A stretch of DNA of 64,000 bases from Escherichia coli (GTDB lineage: Bacteria > Pseudomonadota > Gammaproteobacteria > Enterobacterales > Enterobacteriaceae): NCBI RefSeq assembly GCF_003334355.1, contig NZ_QOWP01000002.1, one strand, 5' to 3'. How positions within the stretch are numbered: the stretch's first letter is position 1; every line of letters starts with the position of its first letter. The position numbers and the translations under genes are program-made. Below, piece by piece: positions 11,808 to 11,830 of the stretch. The notes under the pieces are model-generated. The model saw nothing but the letters and a program-made list of their open reading frames with translations, searched no databases and was not told the DNA's origin.

Positions 11808-11830
11808 CAACAATCTTGCGCTTTAATTTT
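11808..11830 (-). promoter_or_regulatory. ada promoter Ada box (AAATTAAAGCGCA on the minus strand)
   Basis: Reverse complement of about 11817-11829 reads AAATTAAAGCGCA, followed by GATTGTTGGTTTTTGCGTGATGGT..., matching the ada promoter as I recall it; about 70-80 nt upstream of the ada ATG. Confidence 0.7.

Follow-up and report, generated by a model that had tools for sequence, protein, structure and literature searches.

The ada-alkB promoter of Escherichia coli and its Ada box, which lies across the stop codon of the upstream gene apbE

The stretch of DNA analysed in this work, hereafter called the window, comprises 64,000 nucleotides of contig NZ_QOWP01000002.1. According to the RefSeq annotation and the comparison with K-12 MG1655 it is a segment of the E. 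coli chromosome, in which ompC, apbE, ada and alkB are all encoded by the minus strand. The part between 10000 and 14200 was 100% identical to the corresponding sequence of strain PSS-12, and a match to it was present in all 5426 of the 5426 complete E. coli genomes. The four genes are listed below in the direction of transcription.

12990-14120, minus strand: ompC coding sequence (open reading frame and genome match/annotation).
11823-12878, minus strand: apbE (ftp) coding sequence, FAD:protein FMN transferase (open reading frame and genome match/annotation).
10685-11749, minus strand: ada coding sequence, 354 amino acids (open reading frame and annotation; translation 99.7% identical to that of K-12).
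10035-10685, minus strand: alkB coding sequence (open reading frame and annotation; 1-nt overlap with ada).

The first-pass annotation of this DNA had put about 73 bp between apbE and ada and had described a 1-nt overlap between ada and alkB. Both statements were correct: the spacer between apbE and ada is exactly 73 bp long (11750-11822), and base 10685 is common to ada and alkB (TAATG, GGTAATGTTG). The translation of 10685-11749 shows that Cys38, Cys69, Cys321, Arg45, Arg71, Phe114, His115 and Arg118 of the Ada protein are all intact, i.e. the window encodes the cognate regulator with both Cys38 and Cys321 and with its DNA-contacting residues. Since the 1980s the ada promoter with its Ada box, as well as the overlap of ada and alkB, has been textbook knowledge. 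On the other side of ompC, the gene of the small RNA MicF was found at 14454-14547 (plus strand), divergent from ompC, as expected at such a locus; MicF was the sole match of the Rfam scans.

The elements that we assign to the ada promoter region are the following, again in the direction of transcription:

11827-11833, minus strand: A7 tract at the end of apbE, within its last three codons (GAA AAA AAT), a candidate UP-like element, from the sequence; moderately conserved.
11817-11829, minus strand: classical Ada box AAATTAAAGCGCA, a unique exact match, the same in K-12 and in a divergent E. coli lineage.
11826-11828, minus strand: A box AAT, read from the sequence, identical with the last sense codon of apbE (Asn351).
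11823-11825, minus strand: apbE stop codon TAA (end of the open reading frame), within the Ada box.
11816-11819, minus strand: B box GCAA (columns +6 to +9 relative to the stop codon, 99-100% conserved in 81 sequences).
11802-11808, minus strand: GGTTTTT, 3' edge of the conserved Ada/RNA polymerase block and probable -35 region (columns +17 to +23, 84-99% conserved).
11779-11784, minus strand: CAGACT, probable -10 hexamer, proposed from the CAnnnT spacing.
11771, minus strand: predicted transcription start of ada, within about 3 nt, from the position of the -10 hexamer.
11767-11772, minus strand: TATCCT (TAnnCT), conserved, with fixed spacing to the ATG of ada.
11756-11761, minus strand: AGGGAG, Shine-Dalgarno sequence of ada, from the sequence, with GGAG conserved across the aligned loci.

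A single copy of the 13-mer AAATTAAAGCGCA is present in the 64 kb window, on the minus strand at 11829..11817; with at most one mismatch, 0.18 matches would be expected. The same position holds the single exact copy of the classical Ada box AAAnnAAAGCGCA of the ada/aidB type of promoter, and the refined Ada consensus AATnnnnnnGCAA (AATn6GCAA) matches at 11828..11816, where A box AAT, a 6-nt spacer and B box GCAA follow each other as AATTAAAGCGCAA, the arrangement found in ada/aidB-type promoters. The end of apbE reads AGC GAA AAA AAT TAA AGCGCAAGATTGTTGGTTTTTGCG on the minus strand. The first-pass annotation had located an Ada box to the 3' end of apbE, within 11808-11830, and this holds. Its description of the box as starting within a few nucleotides of the stop codon was right as to the adjacency and inaccurate as to the distance: the box contains the TAA (11825..11823), and the AAT is the final sense codon. 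The overlap between the ada regulatory site and the end of the upstream gene, also claimed there, is thus real and tighter than described. It must be noted that the AATn6GCAA pattern alone is not enriched in the window (10 matches, 15.5 expected), so our case rests on the identity with K-12 and on conservation, not on motif statistics.

From the 3' end of apbE to the 5' end of ada, all but two of 261 bases are the same as in K-12. One of the two differences is at a synonymous site in apbE, the other at 11781 (minus strand) in the spacer, in the fourth base of CAGACT, which is A in the window and C in K-12 (CAGCCT). This is the sole difference within the promoter: the window and the K-12 ada-alkB promoter (Pada) have the same flanking genes, A box, B box and A-tract. 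The nearly identical K-12 promoter is known to bind methylated Ada and to be induced by methylating agents, and tiling arrays showed that the transcript induced by MNNG in K-12 covers ada-alkB-yojI. At 11781 most of the family has A (73%). In the 71 nt around this position 1795 of 5421 E. coli genomes were identical to the window. A short megablast query across the box returned 3849 of 5426 genomes, a number probably shaped by the limits of word size and low complexity and unfit as an allele frequency; the allele at 11781 was checked instead directly in one divergent E. coli lineage, which also has A. It is possible that K-12 carries the weaker -10 allele (CAGCCT), and the two versions of the hexamer could differ in basal ada expression.

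To see how far the arrangement extends, one genome per species was scanned, which yielded 80 Enterobacteriaceae loci (L002-L081), 81 sequences with the window. The genera covered include Escherichia, Citrobacter, Salmonella, Kluyvera, Trabulsiella, Kosakonia, Enterobacter, Yokenella, Lelliottia, Pseudocitrobacter, Leclercia, Raoultella, Superficieibacter, Huaxiibacter and Klebsiella. The gene order ompC, apbE, ada, alkB was kept wherever the flanks were long enough (73 loci were complete, the others truncated), and all of the 80 loci shared the register in which the Ada box covers the apbE stop codon. Four loci seemed to be exceptions and were inspected: two had about 150 bp of extra DNA downstream, one had CAT in place of AAT, and one had a frameshifted apbE. 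Aligned on the stop codon, the conserved block extends from -3 to +23 (AAT TAA A..GCAAG.TT...GGTTTTT). This near-invariance in 80 species and the identity with the characterised K-12 promoter support the identification of the site as the adaptive-response promoter of ada, as had been proposed from the sequence. They also effectively refute the notion, to which we assign next to no probability, that the motif is a functionless chance match; the lack of enrichment of the degenerate pattern would be compatible with such a match, the uniqueness of the exact 13-mer speaks against it.

In the longer spacers the additional 150 bp or so between the ada promoter and the ATG are at about 2805-2975 of L023 (Citrobacter sedlakii) and at about 2825-2995 of L077 (Klebsiella indica), and the two species differ in where this DNA lies. 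The Rfam scan found MicF in both loci and no match in the extra spacer DNA. The additional sequence of L077 contains inverted repeats (GACTTGTCAGT...ACTGACAGG), which suggests a small mobile element in the 5' UTR of ada. In L081 (Leclercia adecarboxylata NCTC13032) the 3' half of apbE has an apparent frameshift with extra bases in runs of C and A, which is either an assembly error or the mark of a pseudogene; the Ada box and ada are intact in this genome.

The conservation at the end of apbE has the features expected of DNA that is both coding and regulatory, since within the site synonymous and stop positions are conserved in excess. The stop codon of apbE was TAA in 80 of the 80 loci, whereas in the same loci the stop codons TAA, TGA and TAG were distributed 52/22/5 for ada and 65/10/3 for alkB, and TAA and TGA 73/3 for ompC. 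The terminal asparagine codon was AAT in 72 of 72 cases, whereas at seven other conserved Asn positions of apbE AAC and AAT were mixed freely. Because AAT and TAA are fixed and these controls vary, we regard the comparison as clear evidence, drawn from aligned sequences, that the Ada site imposes a constraint at the DNA level on the final codon and the stop codon of apbE. No probability was attached to these counts, because the sequences are related by descent; the argument lies in the controls, which come from these very genes and genomes. It could be argued that the terminal Asn and the TAA are kept for the function of ApbE or for efficient translation termination rather than for Ada: TAA is the commonest stop codon, and the terminal Asn is 99% conserved as an amino acid. 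We find this very unlikely, as the neighbouring residues 343-350 are just 33-88% conserved, the synonymous choice of AAT is fixed where other conserved asparagines vary, in these genomes ada, alkB and ompC do not keep to one stop codon, and the conserved block continues 23 nt beyond the stop codon into non-coding DNA.

Downstream of the Ada site the alignment suggests where the core promoter may be. A CAnnnT element is exactly 41 nt from the apbE stop codon and the Ada box in 79 of the 81 sequences, despite indels farther downstream, thus the Ada site is in fixed phase with what is probably the -10 hexamer. In 67 of 80 sequences a TAnnCT(T) element begins 23 nt upstream of the ATG of ada, and its distance to CAnnnT is variable. 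Citrobacter and Salmonella have indels between the two elements, so CAnnnT moves with the Ada box and TAnnCT with the ribosome-binding site. We infer that CAnnnT is the -10 element of the Ada-dependent promoter, with transcription starting near 11771. With this start the boxes would extend from about -57 to -45 and the conserved block from about -57 to -31. Such positions fit the footprint from -63 to -31 and the '-60 to -40' site that were reportedly described by Sakumi and Sekiguchi in 1989 and by Landini and Volkert in 1995. Moreover, the predicted start, about 22 nt upstream of the ATG, agrees with the tiling arrays, in which an MNNG-insensitive segment has its boundary some 20 nt before the ATG of ada. 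TAnnCT could be a second -10 element, belonging to a second, possibly basal promoter with a very short leader, or else an element of the 5' UTR. Pairing of TAnnCTT with the Shine-Dalgarno sequence was considered and rejected, the individual folds having energies between -0.5 and -3.6 kcal/mol and RNAalifold giving no consensus structure.

It is useful to compare this promoter with other Ada-regulated promoters and with operon junctions in general. The aidB promoter is, according to the literature, built like Pada, with AATn6GCAA upstream of the -35 region and the involvement of the alpha-CTD and an UP-like element. The gene aidB lies outside the window, and we know of no overlap between its promoter and an upstream coding sequence. 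The alkA promoter is also activated by Ada through A and B boxes (literature). It differs in that its site is nearer to the -35 region or overlaps it, in that both methylated and unmethylated Ada activate it, and in that other contacts are made with the polymerase. Transcription factor sites within upstream coding sequences occur at compact operon junctions, where they likewise constrain the neighbouring gene at the nucleotide level, in its synonymous and stop positions; compared with this general class, the ada site overlaps only about 10 nt of coding sequence and the stop codon. The promoter is the known Pada, as all of its defining features that can be tested in sequence were found, and nothing suggests that the overlap of the box with the stop codon leads to unusual regulation. 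The sole, small addition made here is the fixation of AAT-TAA across the family, which is visible when the Ada site is overlaid on the genome annotation. To our knowledge this fixation has not been discussed. The overall importance is small, the promoter being already known, yet the junction is a clean example of a transcription factor site that constrains the last codon and the stop codon of a neighbouring gene throughout a whole bacterial family.

The first-pass annotation had proposed that transcription reading through from ompC and apbE would pass through the Ada-binding site and might cause interference or occlusion, and had noted no obvious terminator between apbE and the site. Two terminator-like structures bear on this proposal:

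12952-12971, minus strand: intrinsic terminator of ompC, an 8-bp stem with six G-C pairs, followed by T6.
11909-11928, minus strand: terminator-like hairpin and T-run inside apbE, -10.9 kcal/mol, followed by TTTATAT, about 85 nt before the stop codon.

Downstream of ompC, the GC-rich hairpin and its U-run coincide with a mapped transcript end: the Term-seq 3' end at K-12 position 2311605, with 888,489 reads, corresponds to this terminator (PMC7815308 supplement). With a terminator that is strong and mapped (12971..12952) it is not reasonable to expect read-through from ompC beyond leakage, and this part of the proposal was not supported. The situation after apbE is different. The scan of the apbE-ada spacer detected no terminator-like site, the 151-nt 3' region of apbE folded no better than shuffled sequences (z = -0.70), and a stable hairpin before the conserved T-run was seen in none of the 81 species (median dG -1.8 kcal/mol), which agrees with what had been noted. 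A strong terminator upstream of the box had been named as the finding that would overturn the read-through idea. There is none, and outside the coding sequence there can be none, since the box sits on the stop codon; the sole candidate, the hairpin inside apbE, was rejected as a conserved terminator because it is kept in only 11 of 81 species, mainly Escherichia, and lies within translated RNA. It is probably incidental.

Most genera have, after the B box GCAA, an inverted repeat of this box (GCAAGATTGC); the E. coli version is GCAAGATTGT (window 11811-11819, minus strand). The stem is shorter than a terminator needs. The GCAAGATTGC hairpin before the T-run was tried as a possible apbE terminator and rejected as too weak, at the median of -1.8 kcal/mol given above, and by eye no consistent compensatory changes were seen among the aligned sequences.

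Published transcript ends were consulted as well. The Term-seq list (PMC7815308 supplement) has no 3' end between 2291359 and 2311605, the only ends in the region being those of ompC. The SMRT-Cappable-seq supplement has no entries on transcript ends of apbE or ada, and our literature searches on apbE/ada transcript ends and operon structure found nothing relevant.

As apbE has no terminator of its own, read-through into ada is physically possible, and, judging from the sequence, polymerases transcribing apbE probably enter the ada promoter. In uninduced cells about one molecule of Ada is made per generation and 20-30% of the cells have none (PMC6818145, PMC8643705), which caps productive read-through at almost nothing. 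In the tiling arrays apbE is covered by a low-signal, MNNG-insensitive segment, which ends about where the induced ada-alkB-yojI transcript begins. At its native locus ada is still strongly induced (PMC6818145, PMC8643705), and an ectopic Pada reporter is switched on almost simultaneously with an Ada-regulated AlkA fusion (PMC8643705). There is thus no sign of occlusion at native ada. The idea that transcription from apbE, and from ompC, displaces Ada or RNA polymerase from the ada promoter, with the layout serving as a means of interference or occlusion, is consistent with the tandem orientation of the genes on the same strand and with the lack of a terminator from the apbE stop codon to the Ada site. 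Occlusion would, however, require frequent upstream transcription, and ompC transcripts end at an experimentally mapped terminator, the apbE signal is low and unaltered by MNNG, and native ada is induced strongly and nearly simultaneously with the ectopic reporter. We consider interference highly improbable, and the results did not bear out the earlier suggestion of it.

In our opinion the site is, with very high probability, the canonical ada-alkB operon promoter activated by methylated Ada, shared with the end of apbE, and any effect of read-through on it is minimal; no result of the analysis contradicted the identification as Pada. This identification is based on the coordinates, the identity with K-12, the conservation and the terminators described above, and binding, the mechanism of activation and the exact start are deduced or taken from the literature. 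Activation of Pada needs methylated Ada and the alpha-CTD of RNA polymerase, and the A and B boxes, the contacts made by R45, R71, F114, H115 and R118, and class-I-type activation via the alpha-CTD have been described (PMC3788762, PMC4437013). A review of the literature assigns to the alpha-CTD a contact with the A-tract or UP-like element. In the model that we favour, Ada methylated at Cys38 through the repair of methylphosphotriesters would bind the A box (AAT) and the B box (GCAA), at roughly -57 to -45, and recruit RNA polymerase via contacts with the alpha-CTD and sigma-70 to a weak core promoter, which would consist of the conserved GGTTTTT region and the CAGACT -10 hexamer. Landini and Volkert reportedly proposed in 1995 a role of the alpha-CTD at the A-tract or UP-like element. 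Transcription would then start some 22 nt before the ATG of ada. With only 73 bp separating the end of apbE from ada, the upstream half of the Ada site would be built from the last codons and the stop codon of apbE, and the requirements of Ada for DNA sequence would have fixed the terminal AAT and TAA throughout the Enterobacteriaceae. A few apbE transcripts probably run into ada, apbE having no terminator of its own; they would add very little, at most, to the basal expression of ada and would not be a regulatory device.

This raises the question whether read-through from apbE contributes to the extremely low basal level of Ada that underlies the random activation of the adaptive response. 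It has some appeal to suppose that the Ada-independent basal transcription of ada comes in part or entirely from the terminator-less apbE, and that its rate sets the random delay of the response: the quantitative model has a constant basal rate that depends neither on Ada nor on methylated Ada (PMC6818145), and RNA polymerase is reported to bind at Pada only with methylated Ada, thus the source of the basal transcript is not obvious. However, apbE-ada co-transcripts are not shown by any transcript data, the Term-seq list, having no 3' end in the region, would look the same under either reading, and the basal level is low enough for leaky initiation at Pada to suffice. Sigma-S-dependent expression in uninduced cells has also been reported, and with the good Shine-Dalgarno sequence of ada appreciable read-through would yield more Ada than is observed. 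We therefore think such a supply unlikely. It seems quite unlikely, too, that rare apbE transcripts which continue into ada yield the roughly one Ada molecule per generation that decides which cells switch on the adaptive response quickly. If this were true, the lottery of alkylation mutagenesis between cells would be set partly by the promoter of an unrelated upstream gene.

As to that promoter, a scan of the ompC-apbE spacer (12879-12989) gave no convincing sigma-70 promoter for apbE. The tiling-array segment over apbE begins about 25 nt upstream of the apbE ATG, and some of the apbE transcripts could come from polymerases that leak through the ompC terminator.
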